From assembly GCA_046293175.1 (NCBI GenBank), contig JBKBPM010000001.1, forward strand, positions 299,446-363,445: a stretch of 64,000 bases of DNA, given 5' to 3'. This stretch comes from Minisyncoccia bacterium. Lineage in GTDB: Bacteria > Patescibacteriota > Minisyncoccia > Phycocordibacterales > UBA918. A model generated the notes under the pieces. The model was not told the origin of the DNA, searched no databases, and saw nothing but the letters and a program-made list of their open reading frames with translations. Made by a program: the position numbers and the translations under genes. The number at the start of each line of letters is the position of its first letter. Position 1 is the first letter of the stretch. This document shows positions 13,508 through 31,943 of the stretch, piece after piece.

Positions 13508-15454
13508 TTATTCGAGCACTGCTTTGATACGACGGACACCAGCAGACGATGATTCTTCTTTGGTGATCTTGAAGGTTCCTTTGATGTCGGCGAGGTCTTC
13601 GACGTGTGGACCACCACAGAGTTCTTTGGAGACGACCACACCAGCATTGGTGGTCATGGTGTAGACCTTTACTTCATCGGGATAGCGATCCCAGAATGAA
13701 GCTTCGATTGTTGGGTCGTTTTGCGCAGCCACCTTACTCATCATGGTGATGGTAACTGGACCACCTTGCTTGATGGCATCATTTACGTAGGCCTCTACTT
13801 TGCGGAGATCTTCATCACTGATTTTTTCTCCATGGGTTACGTCGTAGCGAAGTCGTTCACCAGTGATATTGCTTCCCGCCTGGTGGACATGAGTACCCAA
13901 AACTTTTCGTAAACCAGCCAGCATGAGGTGGGTGGCGGTGTGGTACTGTACCACCTGCTCTGATTGGTCAGCGAGGCCGCCCTTAAACTTCTGTTCAGCG
14001 CCCGCTCGACTGAGATTGCGGTGTTCATCCATTAGCTTTTCAAACCCCGCTCGCTCGACAATGAGTCCCTTCTCGGCCGCAATTTCTTCGGTGAGCTCAA
14101 TTGGGAAACCGTAGGTTGTGTAGAGATCAAAGGCATTTTGGGCACTAATGGCTTGCTTGGTCACCGGTGCTACGTCTTTATCAATCACTTTTTTGCCATC
14201 GACCTCCTTACTTGTCAGATGAATCTGAAGGGAAACTTTATTAAATTGCTTAAGACCAGCCTCAAGCGTCTTGCGGAATTGCTCTTCTTCTCGGGCAATA
14301 GCAGTCTTAATATCTTCTCGTTTCTCTGCGAGATTCGGGTAGTGAACTTCGTAGGTCGCAATCACACTTGAAGCCAAGTCGGCAAATTTACCGGCCGGAA
14401 TGCCAATCTTATCTGCATACCGCACCGCGCGACGAAGGAGACGACGGACGAAGTAGCCTTGTTGGTCATTGCTTGGATATACCCCATCCCCAATCATAAA
14501 GACCGCCCCACGAATATGGTCAGTAATGACGCGGAAGGCGACTTCATTACCGGCGTAGAGTTTCCCGGAAAGTTCAACAATTTGTTTGATCACCGTATGG
14601 AGGAGATCTACATGAAAGACGTCAGGATTTCCTACCTTCGCTGCGGCAATACGTTCAAGTCCACCACCAAAGTCGACGTTTCGTTGTGGGAGCTTTGCAA
14701 AACTACCATCCTCCTGTTTGATATACTCAATAAACACTGAGTTGCCAATCTCGAGGAATTGCCCTGAGTCACTGTTTGGATGCGCCGCTTGCTGGCCGTA
14801 GACCGGATGAGTGGCGTGTTCCGGACCAAAGTCATAGAAGACTTCACTATCTGGTCCACCAATTTCACCAACGGGCATATTGCTTGGCTTGCCGCTGCGA
14901 CTCCACCAGTTTTTGCCGGCGTCGTAGTAGAAGATACGGCCTCCTTGCATACCAACTTCGTAACCGTCTTCTTCACTGCCGATAAAGATATCTTTGGCCT
15001 CAATGCCGCGTTCGGCAAATAATTCTTTCCAAATAGCGACTGATTCATCATCTCGGGGAATACCAAGTGTTTCGTCTCCTGCAAAGACGGTGACGTAGAT
15101 ACGAGCCGGATCAAGCCCGACTTCATCGACGAGGAAAGTAAAGAACCAGCGGAGTTGTTCCTTTTTGAAGTAGTCACCAAGAGACCAGTTACCGAGCATC
15201 TCAAAGAAGGTGGTATGACGATTGTCCCCTACTTCTTCGATATCATTCGCGCGGAAACACTTTTGCGAGTCAGCGAGACGAGTGCCCATTGGGTGCTTTT
15301 CTCCCATCAGATACGGGATGAGTGGCTGCATACCACTGCCCGTGAAGAGTGTCGTGGGGTCATTTTCTGGTACGAGGGCGGCAGACGGAATAACCGCATG
15401 ACCATTTTTGGCCATAAAGTCGAGATACCGCTGTCTGATTTCATTTCCGCTCAT
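13508..15454 (-). CDS. alaS: alanyl-tRNA synthetase (short form, lacks C-Ala domain)
   Basis: Class II catalytic core (FTGSGMQP, FEMLGNWSLGDYFK), editing-domain HxxxH (HTATHLMLAGL) and CGGPHV motif. 648 aa versus about 870 in typical bacteria. Confidence 0.9.
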   Translation of the reverse strand: MSGNEIRQRYLDFMAKNGHAVIPSAALVPENDPTTLFTGSGMQPLIPYLMGEKHPMGTRLADSQKCFRANDIEEVGDNRHTTFFEMLGNWSLGDYFKKEQLRWFFTFLVDEVGLDPARIYVTVFAGDETLGIPRDDESVAIWKELFAERGIEAKDIFIGSEEDGYEVGMQGGRIFYYDAGKNWWSRSGKPSNMPVGEIGGPDSEVFYDFGPEHATHPVYGQQAAHPNSDSGQFLEIGNSVFIEYIKQEDGSFAKLPQRNVDFGGGLERIAAAKVGNPDVFHVDLLHTVIKQIVELSGKLYAGNEVAFRVITDHIRGAVFMIGDGVYPSNDQQGYFVRRLLRRAVRYADKIGIPAGKFADLASSVIATYEVHYPNLAEKREDIKTAIAREEEQFRKTLEAGLKQFNKVSLQIHLTSKEVDGKKVIDKDVAPVTKQAISAQNAFDLYTTYGFPIELTEEIAAEKGLIVERAGFEKLMDEHRNLSRAGAEQKFKGGLADQSEQVVQYHTATHLMLAGLRKVLGTHVHQAGSNITGERLRYDVTHGEKISDEDLRKVEAYVNDAIKQGGPVTITMMSKVAAQNDPTIEASFWDRYPDEVKVYTMTTNAGVVVSKELCGGPHVEDLADIKGTFKITKEESSSAGVRRIKAVLE

Positions 15455-23875: not shown

Positions 23876-25207
23876 TTAGATGTCAAAACTACCCGTTGGT
23901 AGATTTGGTGGTGCTTCTTTACGTGTTGATGGAATGCGTGATAATCCTGGAGTCATAACCGTGCTACTTGGAATATGGAACATGGTGGCGAGCTCCTCAA
24001 CTGACATAATCTGCATTGGCATACTCGGTTGTAAGGCGTTGCCGTGGGTCGGCGCACGGTGTTTGTACTTATTAAGTTCACGAATTTTCAGCTTACGCTT
24101 TTTGGCGCCAGACCAGTCAGAGAACCAGTTGTAGTCAAAGTCCGTACGCCACGCTACACCAATTTGGTTACGACCAATCAGATCGTACGCTGAAAATGAA
24201 CGAATGGTTGGGGCAATCATATTACCATCAAAAGCACCTTTTTTGGTGGCATAAATCCAACGAATACCCACTTCATACGCATACTTTCCCATTTGACGCT
24301 CCATGGCTTCGATGGTGGCGCGTTCACCTGGTGTGAGGCGGACTTGTGGTTCACCGGTAGCGTCTTCTTCATGACCACCTTTAGCACGACCCATAAGTTC
24401 ATCAATCTTGGCTTGAATACGCTTTTCCCAGGTGCCGTGTTCATGGAAGTGGCCGGTTTTGAAGGTCTTTTTGGCGTGTGGGATACAAAGGAACTGTATC
24501 CAGATATGCTCGTACGGCTTACAGGTCCCAAGGTGCTCAATCATGGCGGCCATCGGGTCAATTTTAAATTCTTCCTTTGGAAGCTTGTCCATACCCATGT
24601 CAATATAGGTTTTAATTGGGTATTCTTCATCACCCTTTTGTTTCATCCAGAATGCAAAGAGATCATGTTTGTCTAAATCTGGCACCACACAAGCAGTGTA
24701 GTCAATTTCTTCTTCAACAACTTCGACCCCTGGGTATTGCGCATAGAGTTGGGACTCAACGGCATTCTTCACTTTTTTTGTGGGACAGTTGATATACAAA
24801 CGAACATCACCGCCAACCGAGACAATCTCAAGTGACATCACCAAGGGGTGCTTCCCATCGATATAGGTCTGCCAGAGGTTGTCTGGTGACTGTACGTTGT
24901 GGACCTGAGAAAGAACCTGCTCCATGGCTTCAGGAGATTTAAAGACTTCTGAGGGCAGCTTGATACGAAGGGTTGTTCGCCCTTGCTGGTGCATGAACTT
25001 ATGCTTCACGTATTCCATCCACTTTTCGTAGAGAAGCCAGAACAACAAAAATGGCAACCAGATTGGCGTTATTGCAATTATAAGCGACAGTATCGGCTCG
25101 ATATCGACGCCCATGATATTAAACGTGGTGCGCATTACGAGAATACCGATGATAATTAGAATTGGTGCAGCCAAGAATCCAAGCATGGCTTTGAACAAAT
25201 CGGACAT
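23876..25207 (-). CDS. hypothetical membrane protein (2 N-terminal TM plus about 370-aa cytoplasmic domain)
   Basis: 443 aa with no recognisable catalytic motif. 4-nt gap to mltG suggests co-transcription. Confidence 0.6.
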   Translation of the reverse strand: MSDLFKAMLGFLAAPILIIIGILVMRTTFNIMGVDIEPILSLIIAITPIWLPFLLFWLLYEKWMEYVKHKFMHQQGRTTLRIKLPSEVFKSPEAMEQVLSQVHNVQSPDNLWQTYIDGKHPLVMSLEIVSVGGDVRLYINCPTKKVKNAVESQLYAQYPGVEVVEEEIDYTACVVPDLDKHDLFAFWMKQKGDEEYPIKTYIDMGMDKLPKEEFKIDPMAAMIEHLGTCKPYEHIWIQFLCIPHAKKTFKTGHFHEHGTWEKRIQAKIDELMGRAKGGHEEDATGEPQVRLTPGERATIEAMERQMGKYAYEVGIRWIYATKKGAFDGNMIAPTIRSFSAYDLIGRNQIGVAWRTDFDYNWFSDWSGAKKRKLKIRELNKYKHRAPTHGNALQPSMPMQIMSVEELATMFHIPSSTVMTPGLSRIPSTRKEAPPNLPTGSFDI

Positions 25208-25284
25208 AGGTGGGTATATTGTACACTAGAATTAGGTCTAGATTAACAAATTATTCAGGCGTCTTTGGTTTTGCGTTGATAAAC

Positions 25285-25318
25285 AAAAGCGGTCGGGGCC
25301 TAGGCCGCGACCGCTTTT
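25285..25318 (-). terminator. rho-independent terminator (aaaagcggtcg gggcctaggccg cgaccgctttt)
   Basis: Stem plus U-tract immediately downstream of the 25326 stop. Confidence 0.6.
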
Positions 25319-25325
25319 TGTTTGA

Positions 25326-26363
25326 TTAGTCTGCCAAAGTGTACTGTCCGTTACTGAGTCGTTTGAATAGATTGGTGTCTTGGAGGTTTACGATAATCGT
25401 GTTGTCCTTGACGTAACGTTCTTTTCGCACTTTTTCAATCAATTCTTCGCGTGAGAGTGGACCTTCGTTTTCGAGGATATCTCGAAGAACATCCTTCACG
25501 ACACCGGCGGTGTACCCCCACTCAGTGAGTGCATAGAGGCCGCGACCTACAAGTACAAAACGTTCATCCTTGATAAGTTCGTTGTGGGTAGTAGCGACGT
25601 GTGCCTTGTGGTTAAAGAGATCCTGAATCGCCTTTGATACTTCCTTAAAGTGCATCGGTGAGCCGTGACGCTTGACCGCGAGGTACGCGTAGTCGCGGAT
25701 ACCCTTTACACGGACATTTGGACTATCAGCTGGTCCCCAGTCACCGAGTGGATTCTTGGCAATCTGTTTTGAAATCAGTAGCCAACGCTTGAGAGTCTCG
25801 TCATCATGCTTATCTGCGATTTCAATCAACTCATTGCGGAAACGAGAGAGGATTTCACTTTCAGATACAAGGTCGTCACGATTGAGAGTGCTATGAACAT
25901 TTTTGAGAGCTTTTTCAACCATATCAGCCACCTTCTTTTCGGTGAACCAACGGTGGTGGTAGAGAGGGTTTTCTTTGCCTTTGTAGAAGGCGTCGCCAAC
26001 AACAAGGAGAAAGTAGAGGTGATTGCGGGTAGATTCGTCCTTTGTGAGACTCTCGAGGAGGACGTTCTCTGCCACGACACCACCACCAAGAAGACGGATG
26101 GCTTCCTGGAGTTCGGCGAGGAGTTCAGCGTGTTCGGAATAAACCGCTGACTTCTGGATAGTTGAAATACCGTAGTTTTCAATCTGACGCACACGCTCGC
26201 GGGTAATACCATAGGTCTGACCGATTGCTTCAAGCGTAAAAGTCTCACCATCGTTGCCGAGGCCATAGCGCTTTTCAAGGACATCACGAGCACGTTCGCC
26301 AATGGCGCTAAGGAGCTTTTTGGTGACCTGTTTTGGTTTAAACGTAATCATATTTCCGCACAA
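25326..26363 (-). CDS. sigma-70 region-4 HTH domain protein (N-terminal HTH, C-terminal domain unknown)
   Basis: TLEAIGQTYGITRERVRQIE is a sigma-70 region 4.2 signature. The rest (about 270 aa) is unassigned. Confidence 0.55.
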   Translation of the reverse strand: MCGNMITFKPKQVTKKLLSAIGERARDVLEKRYGLGNDGETFTLEAIGQTYGITRERVRQIENYGISTIQKSAVYSEHAELLAELQEAIRLLGGGVVAENVLLESLTKDESTRNHLYFLLVVGDAFYKGKENPLYHHRWFTEKKVADMVEKALKNVHSTLNRDDLVSESEILSRFRNELIEIADKHDDETLKRWLLISKQIAKNPLGDWGPADSPNVRVKGIRDYAYLAVKRHGSPMHFKEVSKAIQDLFNHKAHVATTHNELIKDERFVLVGRGLYALTEWGYTAGVVKDVLRDILENEGPLSREELIEKVRKERYVKDNTIIVNLQDTNLFKRLSNGQYTLAD

Positions 26364-26462: not shown

Positions 26463-29285
26463 CTAGGCCACGATAATGTTGAGGATTTTGCCAGGGATGT
26501 AGATAACTTTGGTAATAGTTCCCCCACTCACGTACTTCGAGATGTGATGATCACCACGGGCAAGCTCAAGAGCAGTAATTTCACTGGCGTCTGGTGCCAA
26601 GGTGATCTTGCCGCGCAATTTACCATTAATCTGTACACCAATCACTACCGCAGTGTCGCGTGCAAGTGTCTCGTCGCCGACCGGATACTCTTCACGGTGG
26701 ATACTTGAGGAGTGCCCAAGCTCGTGCCAGATTTCTTCGGTCAGGTGTGGAGCAAATGGAGCCAAGAGTCGCACAAATAATTCGTATGAGGCTTTGGTGA
26801 GTCCTGCTTTCTCAGCGAGGTTTACAAAGATCATCATCGCACTAATTGCGGTATTGAACTTGAACTCTGTAATATCTTGACTGACTTTGATGATGGTCTT
26901 GTGCAGTTGACGGGTCACTTCTGCAGTTTCTGCGCCGACGATGTGTTCAGGAAGGCCATACACACGTTCGAGGAAGCGACGGATACCGGCGATACCGCCC
27001 ATGTCCCATGGGTAGTTGTTACCCTCATAGGGCCCCATAAAGGCGAGATACATTTTGACTGTATCAGCACCGACGAGCTTCACTTGTTCGTCTGGATCAA
27101 TAACATTCCCTTTACTCTTACTCATCTTGTTACCATCTGGACCCAGGATGAGTCCCCGGTTGATACGCCGACGGTACGGTTCGCTCTCGGTCACCAGACC
27201 AAGGTCAAAGAGCGCCTTCTGCCAGAAGCGGGAGTAGAGGAGGTGCATGGTGGTGTGTTCTGCCCCACCAAAGTAGATATCAATCGGCATCCAATCTTTC
27301 TGACGTTCTAGGCTGGAGAGAGCATCATCATTGAGGTTATCGATGTAGCGAAGGAAATACCATGAAGAGTCGACAAAGGTGTCCATAGTTTCAACTTCAG
27401 GTGACCATCCTTCACCAAATAGCTCGACGGTTCGGCGTTTCAACTCTTCACTTTTGGCGAGTGGGGCGACACCGGTAGGGGTTGGATCGACACCTTCGGG
27501 TAGGAGCCATGGTAGGTGTTCTTTTGGTACTACGTGCGCTTCACCATCGGGACTGTATACAATTGGGATTGGGACGCCCCAATAGCGCTGTCGCCCAATC
27601 GACCAGTCACGGAGACGATAGGTCGAGGTCATCCGACCACCGACTTTCGCAACAATTTTTTCTTTGGCGGTTTCTGACGGTAATCCATCGAACTCACCTG
27701 AGTTGCAGACAGTCCCGCTACCAGTAAATGGAATCACCCCATCAAGTTGTCGGAGACAGTAGAGATCTTCTTCGATAGTAAACTTTTCAAGTAATTCTTC
27801 CTTGGTAAGCCATACCGGTTCTTGCTTAGCTAACTCCTCAGCTGGTATTTCGTTTTGTGTGTCTGAAGTTAGTTCAAGGAGGACTCGACGACTAGTTAGA
27901 ACTCTATTTACTTGTTTACCGGGATGGAAAAAGTGAGCTTCTGTTTCCTCAGAGATAAATCGAACGAATTTGGTTTTGTAACCTGTTTTTTCCTCGACTT
28001 CACGGATCGCTGCTTCCTCATAACTTTCTCCTTTCTCGAGACCACCAAATATGAAGCTATAGTTTTGAAACTCATGACTATACTGCACAAGATATTTGTC
28101 GGTCTTAGGGTTGTAGACGAGTGATCCAACAGCAGTGCGTGGCACCGGATTCGGTAGAGGTTGACCGAAGACTTTTCGTACCACCTGCTTCACCGGCAAA
28201 TCAAACTTCTTTGCAAATTCACCGTCACGTTCATCGTGAGCTGGTACGGCCATAATCGCCCCGGTGCCGTAGTCACCAAGCACGTAGTCTGCGACAAAGA
28301 CAGGGATTGCTTCTCCATTGGCGGGATTGATAGCAGTAATACCTTCGAGCTTCACGCCCGTCTTTTCCTTCGTGGTGTCAAGACGATCTTGTTCGTCTTT
28401 TTGTTTGGCTTTGGCTACATATGCATCCACATCAGTTACGTTCGCGGTTTTTTCCCGCACTTCAGCTGTCTGGAGTAGCGGGTGCTCCGGGGCGAGGACG
28501 AGGTAGGTAGCCCCAAAGAGCGTATCAGGACGAGTGGTGAAGACAGTGACTTTGTCACCAGTTGAAAGAGTAAAGTCTATCTCAGCGCCCTTTGAGCGAC
28601 CGATCCACTGCCGTTGGGCTTCTTTGATATGCTCTGGCCAATCGAGCGCGGCGAGGTCGTCCGTCAGTCGATCAGCGTACTTCGTGATACGCAACATCCA
28701 CTGTGGCATCTCGCGCTTCTCTATGACATCACCCGACCGTTCACAGGTACCGTCTGCGAGTACCTGTTCGTTCGCTATCGCCGTGTTACAACCCGGGCAC
28801 CAGTTTACGACCCCTTTGCCACGGTACGCAATACCATTGTTAAAAAACTGCGTGAACATCCACTGCGTCCACTTGTAGTAGCTCTCGTCGGTACTGGAGG
28901 TGGTTTTGTCCCAGGCAAACATGTTGCCCATACTCGCGAGCTGCTCGCGCATGTAGGCCATGTTGTCATACGTCCAGGTCTTGGGGTTGAGGCCACGTTT
29001 AATAGCGGCGTTTTCGGCGGGGAGACCAAAGGCATCAAAGCCCATCGGAAAGAGCACCTGCTTACCCTGCATCTGGCGAAAGCGGGCGTAGATATCAGGT
29101 ACCGCAAAAGCGTACCAATGACCGATATGGAGGTTGCCAGAGGGGTATGGCCATTCGACGAGGAGGTATTCCTTTTCGCGACTGTGGTCACGGTCACCAA
29201 CCGTGTGTTGACCCGATTCGGCCCAGACTTGTTGCCACTTCTTCTCAATCGCGTTGTCGAATTTTTTGTGCATAGAAAATACCAC
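26463..29285 (-). CDS. leuS: leucyl-tRNA synthetase with a Nudix-like insertion
   Basis: HIGH (HIGH at YPSGNLHIGHW), KMSKS (KMSKSKGN), CP1 editing motifs TTRPDT and GTGAIMAVPAHDERD. Extra segment of about 125 aa between ...KQVV and NSGEFDGL containing GGLEKGESYEEAAIREVEEKTGY. Confidence 0.95.
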   Translation of the reverse strand: MVFSMHKKFDNAIEKKWQQVWAESGQHTVGDRDHSREKEYLLVEWPYPSGNLHIGHWYAFAVPDIYARFRQMQGKQVLFPMGFDAFGLPAENAAIKRGLNPKTWTYDNMAYMREQLASMGNMFAWDKTTSSTDESYYKWTQWMFTQFFNNGIAYRGKGVVNWCPGCNTAIANEQVLADGTCERSGDVIEKREMPQWMLRITKYADRLTDDLAALDWPEHIKEAQRQWIGRSKGAEIDFTLSTGDKVTVFTTRPDTLFGATYLVLAPEHPLLQTAEVREKTANVTDVDAYVAKAKQKDEQDRLDTTKEKTGVKLEGITAINPANGEAIPVFVADYVLGDYGTGAIMAVPAHDERDGEFAKKFDLPVKQVVRKVFGQPLPNPVPRTAVGSLVYNPKTDKYLVQYSHEFQNYSFIFGGLEKGESYEEAAIREVEEKTGYKTKFVRFISEETEAHFFHPGKQVNRVLTSRRVLLELTSDTQNEIPAEELAKQEPVWLTKEELLEKFTIEEDLYCLRQLDGVIPFTGSGTVCNSGEFDGLPSETAKEKIVAKVGGRMTSTYRLRDWSIGRQRYWGVPIPIVYSPDGEAHVVPKEHLPWLLPEGVDPTPTGVAPLAKSEELKRRTVELFGEGWSPEVETMDTFVDSSWYFLRYIDNLNDDALSSLERQKDWMPIDIYFGGAEHTTMHLLYSRFWQKALFDLGLVTESEPYRRRINRGLILGPDGNKMSKSKGNVIDPDEQVKLVGADTVKMYLAFMGPYEGNNYPWDMGGIAGIRRFLERVYGLPEHIVGAETAEVTRQLHKTIIKVSQDITEFKFNTAISAMMIFVNLAEKAGLTKASYELFVRLLAPFAPHLTEEIWHELGHSSSIHREEYPVGDETLARDTAVVIGVQINGKLRGKITLAPDASEITALELARGDHHISKYVSGGTITKVIYIPGKILNIIVA

Positions 29286-29379: not shown

Positions 29380-30105
29380 TTAGGTGGTGGTAGACCGCCG
29401 GAATGTCAGCATGGCCCATAGGAACAGCCCACTGCCAGCATAGGAGACGAGCACAAGCCAGAACGGCATAGATGAACCTTTGCTGTTCCAGCCTAAAAAC
29501 ATGATACCTGGGATGGTGACTGAACCAACCCACCACATCCAGTCTTCGGCCCGGTCTGTCGCATCCTCGGAAGGATGTTGACACAGATACTGCCAGAAGT
29601 AGCGCGGCCAGAAGTAGACCGGCCAGAGCATGAGCACCCAGATGAACGGGACACTGAGCCACCGCCATTTGCTCGGCGGTGGCGGTTCAACCGCCTCGCC
29701 CGCTGTGTCGTCTGCTGCGAACTTCATGATAGCCTCGACTTCGTCGATTTCTTCTTCCGTGACTTGGACTGATGTCGGTTGCGCCGGTGATCCGGAAATC
29801 CCCCGCATTTCATCCATATCGTCATAACCGAAGCGAGCCAGAAGTGAGGTATTTTCCCCGTGCGGTTCTGCCGCCCCATCCTGGTCTTTTCGCCTGAAAA
29901 AGAGCAGGAGGGTTGACCCTGCTACCACGATGCTGGCGAGGGTGGCGAGGAAAAATGTCCACCAGCCAACCCAGTACCCGACCGTGCCGATAGCGGCAAA
30001 GACGAGAACAGCGAGGCCGATGGACACGGCCCAATAGAGGGTCCGGTCATCTTCCGGTGTGTGTTCGCCCCAGCTGCGGTGCGGTTCGTTCGTTTGTTCT
30101 GTCAT
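29380..30105 (-). CDS. hypothetical membrane protein (Trp-rich), in a locally high-GC segment
   Basis: 241 aa with about 5 TM. GC visibly higher than its surroundings. Confidence 0.5.
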   Translation of the reverse strand: MTEQTNEPHRSWGEHTPEDDRTLYWAVSIGLAVLVFAAIGTVGYWVGWWTFFLATLASIVVAGSTLLLFFRRKDQDGAAEPHGENTSLLARFGYDDMDEMRGISGSPAQPTSVQVTEEEIDEVEAIMKFAADDTAGEAVEPPPPSKWRWLSVPFIWVLMLWPVYFWPRYFWQYLCQHPSEDATDRAEDWMWWVGSVTIPGIMFLGWNSKGSSMPFWLVLVSYAGSGLFLWAMLTFRRSTTT

Positions 30106-30200
30106 TGGCTACTCCCTCTGGTGCCTGTTTCCCTGCTTGATTTGCAGGTCCATTCGTGACCTTACAAAAAATAGCGACATTTGTCTATCCACAGGTAAGA

Positions 30201-30229
30201 AAACCCACAAACGTGGTGTTTGTGGGTTT
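30201..30229 (-). terminator. rho-independent terminator (aaacccacaaac gtggt gtttgtgggttt)
   Basis: 12-bp stem downstream of the response-regulator stop. Confidence 0.55.
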
Positions 30230-30236
30230 CTCGTTT

Positions 30237-30641
30237 CTACTCTGCTGTGTATAAAAGGAGTCTGATCTGCTTCACGAGGTCATCGAGGCTATGGTGCGCC
30301 TTAATAAAGTAATCGAGAGGCTTCGCTTCATGTGCGAGGCCGATGTTGTTCACATCATCCATGGCAGTAAGAATCACCACGTTGGCACTCCGACCCCATT
30401 CGTCCTCGCGCAAGCGACGGAACATTTCCTGTCCGTCCATAATCGGCATCATGAGATCAAGAAGAATCAAGTCTGGATGATCACGAAGCGCCATTTCAAG
30501 TCCTACCTGACCGTTTTCGGCTCCTGATACCTTGTATCCTTCTTCGTGGAGGGCTTCTATCATCGCCTCGCGGAGGTCGACTTCATCTTCAATGACAAGA
30601 ATACGTTTTTCCATGTCCCCGATTGTACCATAGCTACCCAT
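30237..30641 (-). CDS. stand-alone response-regulator receiver domain (CheY-like)
   Basis: ILVIEDE...DLILLDLMMP...T receiver motifs with no output domain. Start chosen at MGSYGT with a GAGGA RBS. Confidence 0.8.
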   Translation of the reverse strand: MGSYGTIGDMEKRILVIEDEVDLREAMIEALHEEGYKVSGAENGQVGLEMALRDHPDLILLDLMMPIMDGQEMFRRLREDEWGRSANVVILTAMDDVNNIGLAHEAKPLDYFIKAHHSLDDLVKQIRLLLYTAE

Positions 30642-30677
30642 GGTCTGTCCTCTACCACATTGGTATGATACTTGTAT

Positions 30678-31943
30678 ATGCAAATTAAGGTCGGCTTCGG
30701 GACTTGGCGAGCCGTGCGTATGTTCCTTATTGTTCTCGCTCTGTCTGCAGTCTATGGCGGTATCTATTTTGTTGTGTCGCTCTTGTTGCCAACTATACTC
30801 GGGCCAGTGTTGCTTGTAAGCTTCGTACTCTTACTTGCCTTTGGGGTGGTGACAGTTGGTTCGCCTGATGAAGCTATGGCCAAATGGCACGAAGACCAAC
30901 TCCTCTCGACCCGCGAACTTTACTCCACCCTCTATACGCAGAGTCCAGTGCCGTATCTTACCCTGGATAAGGCAGGGGTGATTACAACGTGTAACCAAGC
31001 AGCCGCTCGCCTCTTTGGAATTACGATGGAACAAATGGTCGGTACAACCGTGAGTGACCGCTTCACTCACGAGGATGAGGTACATCTTTCGGTAGTGCTC
31101 GGTAAGTTCTCATCTGGCTCGACCATTATGGATAGCGAACTACAATTTCGTACCTACACTGATGAACTACGCTGGGTCTCTCTGTACTACTTCGTAAACC
31201 AGACCTTTGACCAACGTCTCGTCTCAATGATTGATGTCACACAGCATAAGATAGTTGATAAGGCGAAGAGCGAGTTTGTCGCGCTTGCGACCCACCAGTT
31301 GCGGACGCCTGTCGCGGCTATCCGCTGGAATGTAGAGCTGCTTGAACGGTCGATGCGTGGTGCCGCGAGTGAGAAGCAAACCAACTACCTCATGAAGATC
31401 GGCCGCAATGTGACCCGTATGCTCGCCCTCATTAATGACTTTCTTAGTGTCTCAAAGCTTGAGACTGGTACCTTCTCCACTGCTCCCGAGCCGATTGAAC
31501 TCTCGACCTACCTCCCGACCATTGTGGAAGAATTTGAAGGTCAGATTAAAGAAAAGCAGATTGAACTTACGGTCAATTATCAACCGGCACCTTTCACCTA
31601 CACTGCTGATAGTCGTCTTTTCCATATTATTACGAGCAATCTTCTCTCCAACGCAGTGAAGTACGTGCGACCGAGCGATCGTATTGCTTTTGGCTACGTG
31701 CTTGAAGGCAATGAACTCGTCTTTACCGTCGCTGATAGCGGTATTGGTATTCCCGCCGAGCAGCTGCCGCGCCTCTTTAGTAAGTTCTTCCGGGCTTCAA
31801 ATGCTATGCAGCACCGCGCCGAAGGTACAGGACTTGGGCTCTACATCGTGAAGGAATCAGTGGAGCAGCTTGGGGGGACGATTACCGTGCAGTCAGTTGA
31901 GAATCAGGGTACAACCTTTATTGTCAGGCTTCCAGTGGCATAG
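30678..31943 (+). CDS. sensor histidine kinase (2 TM, PAS, HisKA, HATPase_c)
   Basis: H-box HQLRTPVAAIRWNVELL, PAS-like segment, G-boxes (GTGLGL). Divergently arranged with the receiver gene. Confidence 0.85.
   Translation: MQIKVGFGTWRAVRMFLIVLALSAVYGGIYFVVSLLLPTILGPVLLVSFVLLLAFGVVTVGSPDEAMAKWHEDQLLSTRELYSTLYTQSPVPYLTLDKAGVITTCNQAAARLFGITMEQMVGTTVSDRFTHEDEVHLSVVLGKFSSGSTIMDSELQFRTYTDELRWVSLYYFVNQTFDQRLVSMIDVTQHKIVDKAKSEFVALATHQLRTPVAAIRWNVELLERSMRGAASEKQTNYLMKIGRNVTRMLALINDFLSVSKLETGTFSTAPEPIELSTYLPTIVEEFEGQIKEKQIELTVNYQPAPFTYTADSRLFHIITSNLLSNAVKYVRPSDRIAFGYVLEGNELVFTVADSGIGIPAEQLPRLFSKFFRASNAMQHRAEGTGLGLYIVKESVEQLGGTITVQSVENQGTTFIVRLPVA

Follow-up and report, generated by a model that had tools for sequence, protein, structure and literature searches.

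A Nudix-fold domain nested in the CP1 editing domain of a Patescibacterial leucyl-tRNA synthetase, on a hairpin that very probably recombines as a cassette

Aminoacyl-tRNA synthetases are among the most conserved enzymes, and the accessory domains that they carry in bacteria are as a rule ancient and fixed, and have to do with tRNA or with editing. The constituents of the architecture described here are known, namely the bacterial leucyl-tRNA synthetase (LeuRS), the Nudix superfamily, and synthetases that carry an extra enzyme domain, as in the NCBIfam family of isoleucyl-tRNA synthetase (IleRS) with a GNAT domain. A 2017 survey of the Nudix clan nowhere mentions tRNA or a synthetase (PMC5389931), and full-text literature searches found no description of a Nudix domain nested in an aminoacyl-tRNA synthetase. 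Here, we describe such a domain in the product of leuS, a gene on a 64,000-nucleotide stretch of a Minisyncoccia bacterium contig (JBKBPM010000001.1; hereafter, the window). A first-pass annotation made from the letters of the window had noticed a Nudix-like insertion in this LeuRS and had supposed a Nudix module in a class I synthetase to be undescribed, which agrees with the outcome of the literature searches. The architecture is unremarked rather than hidden, because it is visible in precomputed Pfam annotations.

The Nudix-fold domain, of the type called A below, comprises residues 385-522 (138 aa; 27720..28133 on the minus strand, as are leuS and all features within it) and was delimited with Pfam, AlphaFold2 and Foldseek; the range first proposed for it, 27600-28100, covers most of the domain but not its exact limits. 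Pfam NUDIX (PF00293) matched the excised segment with an E value of 1.8e-15 and 57.5 bits, far above the cut-off of 21.1, and matched the full LeuRS with an E value of 3.9e-14 and 53.2 bits, spanning residues 382-502. Modeled alone with AlphaFold2, residues 366-532 gave a predicted local distance difference test score (pLDDT) of 95.4 and a beta-beta-beta-alpha-beta-beta-beta-alpha layout, in which the Nudix box is carried on the helix at positions 57-69 of the segment. When the segment model was compared with the PDB using Foldseek, the best 50 matches were all Nudix proteins, including 2azw (E 1e-10), Ndx1 (1vc8, template modeling (TM) score 0.81), and the Aquifex diadenosine tetraphosphate (Ap4A) hydrolase (3i7u, TM 0.79), as well as M. 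smegmatis MutT1, Mtb Rv2985, and the C. elegans Ap4A hydrolase. The two checks proposed in the first-pass annotation, a hidden Markov model (HMM) search with the excised segment and a prediction of an independent Nudix fold, both came out in favor of a Nudix domain, the latter at a pLDDT of 95 and with Nudix hydrolases as the nearest PDB neighbors. Neither of the outcomes named there as refuting the idea, namely a missing HMM match with an unrelated fold or an alignment of the segment to a known LeuRS-specific insertion, was seen.

Between the conserved segments ...KQVV and NSGEF..., the window LeuRS has 158 residues compared with ~23 in T. thermophilus LeuRS, where the insertion point is flanked by residues 376-380, and ~22 between the counterparts of these segments in E. 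coli LeuRS. The excess is therefore ~135 residues, rather than the ~125 estimated at first. Profile positions 1-143 of 185 of the Pfam CP1 family, PF13603, match residues 225-372 and the remainder resumes past the insert, while in-silico removal of residues 385-522 gave one contiguous match over profile positions 1-183 of 185 and raised the score from 201.8 to 208.2 bits. Since the profile is split by the insert and rejoined on its removal, the Nudix domain is nested in CP1, where it occupies a surface hairpin past the motif with the catalytic Asp, and thus lies inside the editing domain and not, as had originally been noted, after it. The N-terminal part of CP1 (residues 225-384; 28134..28613) contains the TTRPDT and AHDERD motifs, and the C-terminal part (residues 523-547, SGTVCNSGEFDGL...; 27645..27719) is the second stretch matched by PF13603 and aligns to T. 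thermophilus LeuRS from residue 380 onward. In the full-length AlphaFold2 model, the blocks of the insert have pLDDT values of 95-97 and both linkers at least 90. The models show a Nudix domain predicted to be complete, to fold independently and to sit on a two-stranded stalk of the CP1 hairpin, and we regard residues 385-522 as almost certainly a genuine Nudix domain nested in CP1. Residues 370-384 (RKVFGQPLPNPVPRT; 28134-28178) align both with the native T. thermophilus LeuRS loop ERP-GEPLPEPLERA and with the N-terminus of free-standing Nudix relatives, in which F4, G5, and R14 are invariant.

Two other accounts of the insert were rejected. An intein or other self-splicing insertion was judged by a Cys or Ser at the N-junction and a His-Asn followed by Cys, Ser or Thr at the C-junction; the junctions KQVV/RKVF and TVC/NSGEF are without Hint-block residues, the Pfam scan gave no Hint or intein match, and the segment is a complete Nudix fold. 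An artifact of assembly or gene calling was rejected on the grounds that more than 100 independent proteins (NCBI, JGI, ENA, and Logan) share the architecture and that the open reading frame (ORF) is uninterrupted. No second Nudix box was found within the 64-kb window.

The host protein is a bacterial-type LeuRS of 940 aa, encoded by leuS (26463..29285) with a GTG start. The NCBI entry P0001 is 100% identical, starts at M5 (936 aa), and is labeled 'MAG: class I tRNA ligase family protein [Candidatus Paceibacteria bacterium]', a metagenome-assembled genome (MAG) entry. The equivalog HMM TIGR00396 (leuS_bact) scored the window LeuRS at 878.3 bits against a cut-off of 548.4, Pfam matched tRNA-synt_1, tRNA-synt_1_2, and Anticodon_1, and the best Foldseek matches of the full-length protein were the T. 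thermophilus and E. coli LeuRS structures. The AlphaFold2 model, made with a 107-sequence alignment, has a mean pLDDT of 88.9. Translation verified the HIGH signature (29118..29129), the KMSKS loop (27114..27128), and the editing motifs TTRPDT (28521..28538) and GTGAIMAVPAHDERD, with AHDERD at 28224..28241, confirming the initial report that all of these are intact. H53, G55, and H56 of the HIGH signature are invariant across 107 homologs, as are the CP1 editing residues T250, T251, R252, T255, and D351; since the editing residues are invariant, the window LeuRS looks fully functional. Unlike T. thermophilus LeuRS, the window protein has no leucine-specific domain before KMSKS, a domain found in most, although not all, bacterial LeuRS: T. 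thermophilus residues 582-637 are unmatched, the protein reads ...LILGPDGNKMSKS, and the place where the domain would be (window 27105-27150, residues ~711-727) reads ...RGLILGPDGNKMSKSKGN. The sole low-confidence stretch of the model, with pLDDT below 50, is residues 713-727 at the KMSKS loop. A passage of one published study describes a GKDG tetrapeptide in place of the leucine-specific domain in Mycoplasma mobile LeuRS (PMC3643597), and because that enzyme is similar in this respect, the absence of the domain is no bar to counting the window protein as a bacterial-type LeuRS.

The Nudix box (GGLEKGESYEEAAIREVEEKTGY, residues 414-436; 27978..28046) has eight of the nine fixed positions of GX5EX7REUXEEXGU, in line with its first description as near-canonical with one E-to-K change. 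The exception is K433 (codon AAA, 27987..27989), in place of the second Glu of REUxEE, so that the box reads REVEEK and falls short of the full Nudix box of catalytically competent members. The deviation itself was therefore read correctly, but it is not minor, as at least 90% of relatives have Glu at this site. In 73 aligned cassettes, G414, E429, and E432 are invariant, and R383, G415, E420, R428, W492, and the Glu at position 433 are at least 90% conserved. The canonical REUxEE is present in 42 of the 44 type-A copies (the window copy and the identical database entry P0001 being counted separately), and most type-B and type-C cassettes also have a complete box; a Lys in the EE pair occurs among type A only in the window copy (with P0001) and in P0062 (RETLKETGY). 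Because K433 replaces what we take to be the equivalent of MutT E57, a metal ligand essential for catalysis, the window copy is probably impaired, its catalysis being weakened, lost or altered.

Past the box by 15-25 residues lies the X-loop motif HFFHPGKQVNR (residues 451-461; 27903..27935). The type-A form of this loop, HF[Y/F]HPGKxxNR, does not vary at F83, H85, K88, and R92 and shows conservation of at least 90% at P86, G87, and N91, and the conserved polar residues of type A outside the box are R14, E36, H85, K88, N91, R92, E102, E115, and K118. Apart from K433, the window copy keeps every other conserved type-A residue. At position +17 past the box, 26 of 29 aligned type-A copies have Tyr, while the window copy and two others have Phe; types B and D likewise have a Tyr, at +17/+18, and so do the free-standing relatives. 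For the role of the X-loop we follow the Nudix-clan survey (PMC5389931), which in its passage on this loop links a Tyr 16-18 residues past the box to activity on diadenosine polyphosphates (ApnA), as a correlative marker (Dunn 1999 via PMC5389931).

The domain is no oddity of one gene; it is a clade-wide, strain-variable cassette, found in more than 100 LeuRS of Paceibacteria/Parcubacteria. Among the best 120 LeuRS homologs (65-86% identity, from Paceibacteria, Parcubacteria, and Patescibacteria MAGs, with taxonomy taken from the MAG labels), PF00293 is present in 114 and absent from six proteins of ~815-832 aa, and the Nudix-in-CP1 architecture is a lineage trait. Clustering of the inserts gave at least four families, with rarer types besides: type A (44 copies including the window copy; box GGLExGEsYEeAAvRETxEETGY), type B (37 copies; GGGTxGE..AI.RELxEETGF), type C (21 copies; GGLxxGE.....L.RE[IL].EET.Y), and type D (17 copies; GGIExGQTPEEAALAEIxEEAAL, with the E-x2-EE triad kept). 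LeuRS of ~1100 aa carry two tandem domains at the same site, in the combinations B+A, D+A, B+C, D+C, and A'+C. Among GTDB species representatives, a site-II Nudix is found in LeuRS labeled Parcubacteria, Kaiser-, Nomura-, Uhr-, and Moranbacteria and Minisyncoccia, reaching LeuRS of ~45% core identity, and about half of the sampled GTDB species are without this site-II Nudix.

A word-indexed search with the insert alone gave no relatives, while exhaustive HMMER and profile searches did reveal them. HMMER against 1.84 billion representatives found 395 insert relatives at E <= 1e-3. Within the best 150 of these, 96 were LeuRS or LeuRS fragments by BLAST, at least three further short fragments contained a piece of the LeuRS editing domain by Pfam, and the remainder were mostly free-standing Nudix proteins of 118-300 aa; the sole long multi-domain match in a non-LeuRS host was a fragment resembling valyl-tRNA synthetase (ValRS). 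This protein, P0265 (825 aa, metagenomic), has a ValRS-like N-terminal half (TVRPET, GTGIVKITPGHD) but no C-terminal synthetase half; after the N-terminal half come an endonuclease domain of DUF559/Vsr-like type (PF04480, E 4e-26) and then a degenerate type-A-like Nudix, 31% identical to the window Nudix. The gene may have been split or have decayed, or it may be the footprint of a mobile element.

The hairpin and its Nudix domain very probably constitute a recombining cassette. The exchangeable unit comprises residues 366-531 (27693..28190), that is, the strands KQVV... and ...TGSGTVCNSGE together with the Nudix domain. Cassette types are scattered on a neighbor-joining tree of the LeuRS core, and near-conspecific genomes are shown to hold different cassettes, of types A-D, in tandem or replaced by a short loop. 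The claim of exchange relies only on three contig pairs verified at the DNA level. In the first, L001 (P0002) and L002 (P0011) have flanks of 97-98% nucleotide identity over ~14 kb and LeuRS cores of 98-99% amino acid identity, and a B+A tandem of 976 bp in one stands against a type-C cassette of 529 bp in the other; nucleotide homology ends after the GLPV codons and returns exactly at the FDG codons. The second pair, L083 (P0054) and L084 (P0089), has flanks of 93-96% nucleotide identity and a type-D cassette of 507 bp versus a 129-bp loop, and the third, L085 (P0063) and L086 (P0070), has flanks of 95-98% and an A'+C cassette of 1017 bp versus a type D of 531 bp. When the window is compared with L001 (flanks 92-93%), the A module is common to both and a B module ahead of it is present only in L001. 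Of 13 pairs whose cores are at least 94% identical, 10 differ in their cassette, a count that is unusable as a turnover rate because the database was clustered at 90%, which collapses close pairs sharing a cassette.

Composition and divergence also set the cassettes apart from their host gene. The window cassette has a GC content of 0.43 and a third-codon-position GC content (GC3) of 0.36, compared with 0.52 and 0.56 for the rest of leuS, and GC3 across the cassettes is 0.27-0.37, while the LeuRS core within the same ORF has 0.56-0.60; the cassettes are imported and foreign in their composition. Between the window and L001, the proportion of synonymous differences (pS) is 0.875 in the A module versus 0.35-0.43 in the core. 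The ratio of nonsynonymous to synonymous divergence (dN/dS) between the A modules of L001 and L003 is 0.074, and the cassettes are under purifying selection. Homology between L001 and L002 is interrupted mainly at the intragenic cassette; the other short non-homologous stretch lies upstream (L001 6885-7354 versus L002 2816-3583). Neither a CP1 hairpin that serves as a site for several cassette families nor strain-level exchange of such cassettes was found in the full-text literature searches.

Related LeuRS carry enzymes at further loops, with insert sites at about residues 211-250 (before CP1), 578, and 610, besides 369. One to three Nudix domains occur at these other loops. Sister LeuRS also hold a full Ham1/ITPase (P0227, E 1.5e-59), a HAD_2 domain alongside a Nudix (P0132), Ser_hydrolase-type alpha/beta hydrolases (P0098, P0123, P0141, and P0154), and NTP_transf_5 (P0235). 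P0121/P0122 are also among the sister LeuRS with enzymes nested at other loops. Because these enzymes are nested in LeuRS, NCBI labels the proteins 'class I tRNA ligase family protein' and, once, 'RdgB/HAM1 family', the latter being the 1330-aa LeuRS P0227/P0273, named 'RdgB/HAM1 family non-canonical purine NTP pyrophosphatase' (NTP, nucleoside triphosphate). Two further recurrent modules of ~90-135 aa, one in P0148 (residues 350-505) and P0062 (residues ~243-334), the other in P0181 (residues 590-750) and P0227 (residues 605-785), gave no match in the Pfam scan. The motif 'GFWNE...F.FK.K.G' is found in one of the two and 'G.KTIETR' in the other, the latter bearing a likeness by eye to the ASCH-domain signature. 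This wider set of hydrolases nested in Patescibacterial LeuRS was likewise not found in full-text literature searches.

Given as a blend of its parts, the best overall explanation, held with modest confidence, combines the nested Nudix domain, the recombining cassette, and a carrier role for LeuRS. Cassettes would be swapped by homologous recombination, for which the strongly conserved LeuRS coding sequence on either side would provide the homology arms. The module would be an autonomous Mg2+-dependent pyrophosphohydrolase acting on a phosphate-rich nucleotide, an NTP or an ApnA-like compound, and LeuRS would be the constitutively expressed carrier of this house-cleaning or salvage activity, which would have no part in aminoacylation or editing. 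The carrier part is a tentative proposal, plausible but somewhat short of probable. In its favor, the co-nested Nudix, Ham1, and HAD domains are classical nucleotide house-cleaning families; since hydrolases sit at several distant LeuRS loops, their placement with respect to the active sites of LeuRS seems to matter little, and since cassettes swap between cores that are 98-99% identical, no co-adapted interface is needed. The nearest relatives of type A in profile searches are free-standing Patescibacterial Nudix proteins (~160 aa, E ~1e-40, 36-46% identity), and stand-alone enzymes as closest relatives would also fit a carrier. As to substrate, there are weak hints of ApnA as a candidate.

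Several points weigh against this explanation. K433, at one of the three metal-binding Glu positions, may render the window copy non-catalytic. Turnover at the level of strains would be expected of conflict systems rather than of house-cleaning, and the specificity of the insert family for LeuRS is not predicted by a pure carrier and may reflect a functional link. The pLDDT of at least 90 in the linkers suggests an orientation of the Nudix that is fixed relative to CP1, and the structural neighbors of the model together with the X-loop Tyr lean towards ApnA hydrolases. In addition, profile searches of the PDB found no close characterized relative (best E 5e-7 to 6e-6), and NCBIfam gave no subfamily assignment, with only far-sub-threshold matches to YtkD, RppH, NudC, NudI, and MutT.

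In a rival reading, already raised in the first-pass annotation, the Nudix would be coupled to LeuRS chemistry, destroying Ap4A and other ApnA formed from Leu-AMP and ATP, or else misactivated or toxic aminoacyl-adenylate mimics aimed at LeuRS; with toxins as the target, cassette turnover would be an arms race. Aminoacyl-tRNA synthetases are a recognized source of Ap4A. The structural neighbors are rich in ApnA hydrolases (the Ap6A hydrolase Ndx1 and the Aquifex, MutT1, Rv2985, and C. elegans enzymes), lupin and human Ap4A hydrolases are among the type-A profile matches, and the conserved His, Lys, and Arg of the X-loop would suit a polyphosphate chain. The Tyr 17-18 residues past the box in types A, B, and D and in the free-standing relatives is the one that the X-loop passage of the survey links to ApnA activity (PMC5389931), and both the near restriction of the insert family to LeuRS and the fast replacement of cassettes are consistent with coupling. 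The window copy, however, has Phe at +17 and Lys at a metal ligand, and the likeness of fold is generic (15-25% identity), the best profile match being AvrM14 and not an ApnA hydrolase. Aminoacyl-AMP is an acyl-phosphate rather than a nucleoside diphosphate linked to another moiety, and is chemically atypical as a Nudix substrate. Nudix domains and the unrelated Ham1 and HAD occur at distant loops in sister LeuRS, contrary to a dependence on geometry, and the same clade contains LeuRS without any cassette. We therefore consider coupling unlikely. Of the two substrates put forward in the first-pass annotation, Ap4A has weak support and aminoacyl-AMP none.

A different reading of K433 is that the window module is catalytically dead, a structural passenger, a ligand-binding appendage, or a copy awaiting replacement by another cassette. 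The Lys stands in place of a Glu kept in at least 90% of relatives, and non-catalytic Nudix domains are a recognized class according to the relevant passage of the survey (PMC5389931). LeuRS without the cassette is viable in the clade, which means that LeuRS can function without the module. Against a dead module, the nonsynonymous divergence (dN) of the window A module is 0.167 to L001 and 0.184 to L003, compared with 0.186 between L001 and L003, and is thus not accelerated; the remaining conserved residues are intact, and to judge by its sequence the module does not appear to be decaying apart from K433. K433 arose by one G-to-A transition that could be of recent date or confined to the strain, and for the family as a whole, loss of activity is contradicted by the conserved catalytic box. 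For the window copy we find such a fate doubtful.

The CP1 domain receives the tRNA 3' end. That the module acts on tRNA-Leu ends, with LeuRS as a tRNA-binding platform for removal of a 5' cap-like or triphosphate group or of a 3' pyrophosphate or nucleotide adduct, would accord with this position, with AvrM14-A/B (which we take to be an mRNA-decapping effector) as the best type-A profile match in the PDB with the X-loop aligned, with weak NCBIfam top matches to the RNA pyrophosphohydrolases YtkD and RppH and to NudC, and with HAD and nucleotidyltransferase modules of sister LeuRS that could round out an end-repair pathway, but it is very unlikely, given that these likenesses are weak (E 1e-4 to 1e-7) and centered on the generic Nudix box, that Ham1/ITPase, the best-scoring co-nested domain, works on free NTPs, and that the nearest relatives are free-standing, 160 aa long, and without an RNA-binding appendage.

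A broader proposal takes the CP1 hairpin and at least three other loops of Paceibacteria LeuRS as a docking system, in which hydrolase cassettes (Nudix A-D, Ham1, HAD, and alpha/beta-hydrolase) are functionally coupled to the synthetase and their turnover is driven by selection. We think this improbable as it stands. If it were true, the cassettes would serve to destroy ApnA, adenylate by-products or LeuRS-directed adenylate-mimic toxins, or to repair tRNA ends, their turnover would reflect conflict or host adaptation rather than drift, and an essential aminoacyl-tRNA synthetase would be a modular, rapidly evolving multi-enzyme platform. Short of such a system, the cassettes bear on several matters. 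An essential synthetase tolerates whole foreign enzymes in its proofreading domain, swapped among near-conspecific strains, and the CP1 hairpin provides a natural permissive insertion site of use for protein engineering. In the genome-reduced Patescibacteria, nucleotide house-cleaning enzymes appear to be packed into an essential gene. The case also raises the question of whether Ap4A and the adenylate by-products of aminoacyl-tRNA synthetases are handled in cis.

The surroundings of leuS were compared over window 23876-26363 and 29380-31943, and synteny is kept in all related contigs examined (L001, L002, and L083-L086). The order is a PAS histidine kinase, a response regulator, a small ORF, leuS, a sigma70_r4/HARE-HTH protein (window 25326-26363), a DUF8128 protein (window 23876-25207), and YceG, with MnmA and an ATP-cone protein past YceG in longer contigs. 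The alanyl-tRNA synthetase of the window (13508-15454, minus strand) is just 648 aa (tRNA-synt_2c and tRNA_SAD) with nothing nested; within the 64-kb window, domain nesting is confined to LeuRS. A link to defense is unsupported, as PADLOC gave only a generic Nudix match, of type C to PDC-S07 (1.7e-10), and so is a phage origin, as a fold search of BFVD gave ordinary phage and giant-virus Nudix proteins, none of them specially close.

Compared with known systems, the window LeuRS is 37% identical over the whole protein to T. thermophilus LeuRS (1H3N/2BYT) and 33% to E. coli LeuRS (4AQ7/4ARC), with which it has domain order, HIGH, KMSKS, and the editing motifs in common, whereas the CP1 hairpin of ~20 residues in those enzymes holds a 138-aa enzyme domain here. 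The free-standing Patescibacterial Nudix proteins (P0279-P0383), which are labeled just 'NUDIX hydrolase' or 'MutT (NUDIX family)', resemble type A in length, in the X-loop (FYHxPKGxNR), and in a C-terminal E..VWL motif. They differ in being stand-alone genes and in their box, which is mostly GGIExGQTAEEAARAEVxEETGY and, like that of cassette type D, has Gln and Ala at two structural positions. The gene of one of them, P0301, follows a HAD_2 gene at a distance of 4 bp on a 738-kb Staskawiczbacteria contig (L087, 4400-5486), an adjacency that mirrors the co-nesting of Nudix and HAD in LeuRS P0132 and was not seen in L088 or L089. The AvrM14-A/B Nudix effector of flax rust (8DP8/8DP9), which matched the type-A profile with an E value of 5e-7, aligns over its full length, including the F..PG.K...R X-loop, at very low identity, and differs in being a eukaryotic, secreted effector. 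The solved Nudix ApnA/NTP pyrophosphohydrolases (E. faecalis 2AZW, T. thermophilus Ndx1 1VC8, Aquifex 3I7U, M. smegmatis MutT1 5GGC, and Mtb Rv2985 9CXX) have the same alpha/beta/alpha fold as the segment (TM 0.6-0.8, root-mean-square deviation 2.6-3.8 A), with the Nudix helix and box placed alike, at just 15-25% identity. Most type-A copies have a Tyr ~17 residues past the box, as these enzymes do, unlike the window copy with its Phe at that position and its Lys in place of the second EE Glu, and the solved enzymes stand alone or form an N-terminal domain, in no case inside an aminoacyl-tRNA synthetase. The NCBIfam family NF040702 (isoleucine--tRNA ligase, N-acetyltransferase domain-containing) involves another synthetase and another accessory fold, and the window LeuRS scores 68.6 bits against its cut-off of 1999, but it likewise joins a class Ia synthetase to an unrelated enzyme domain.

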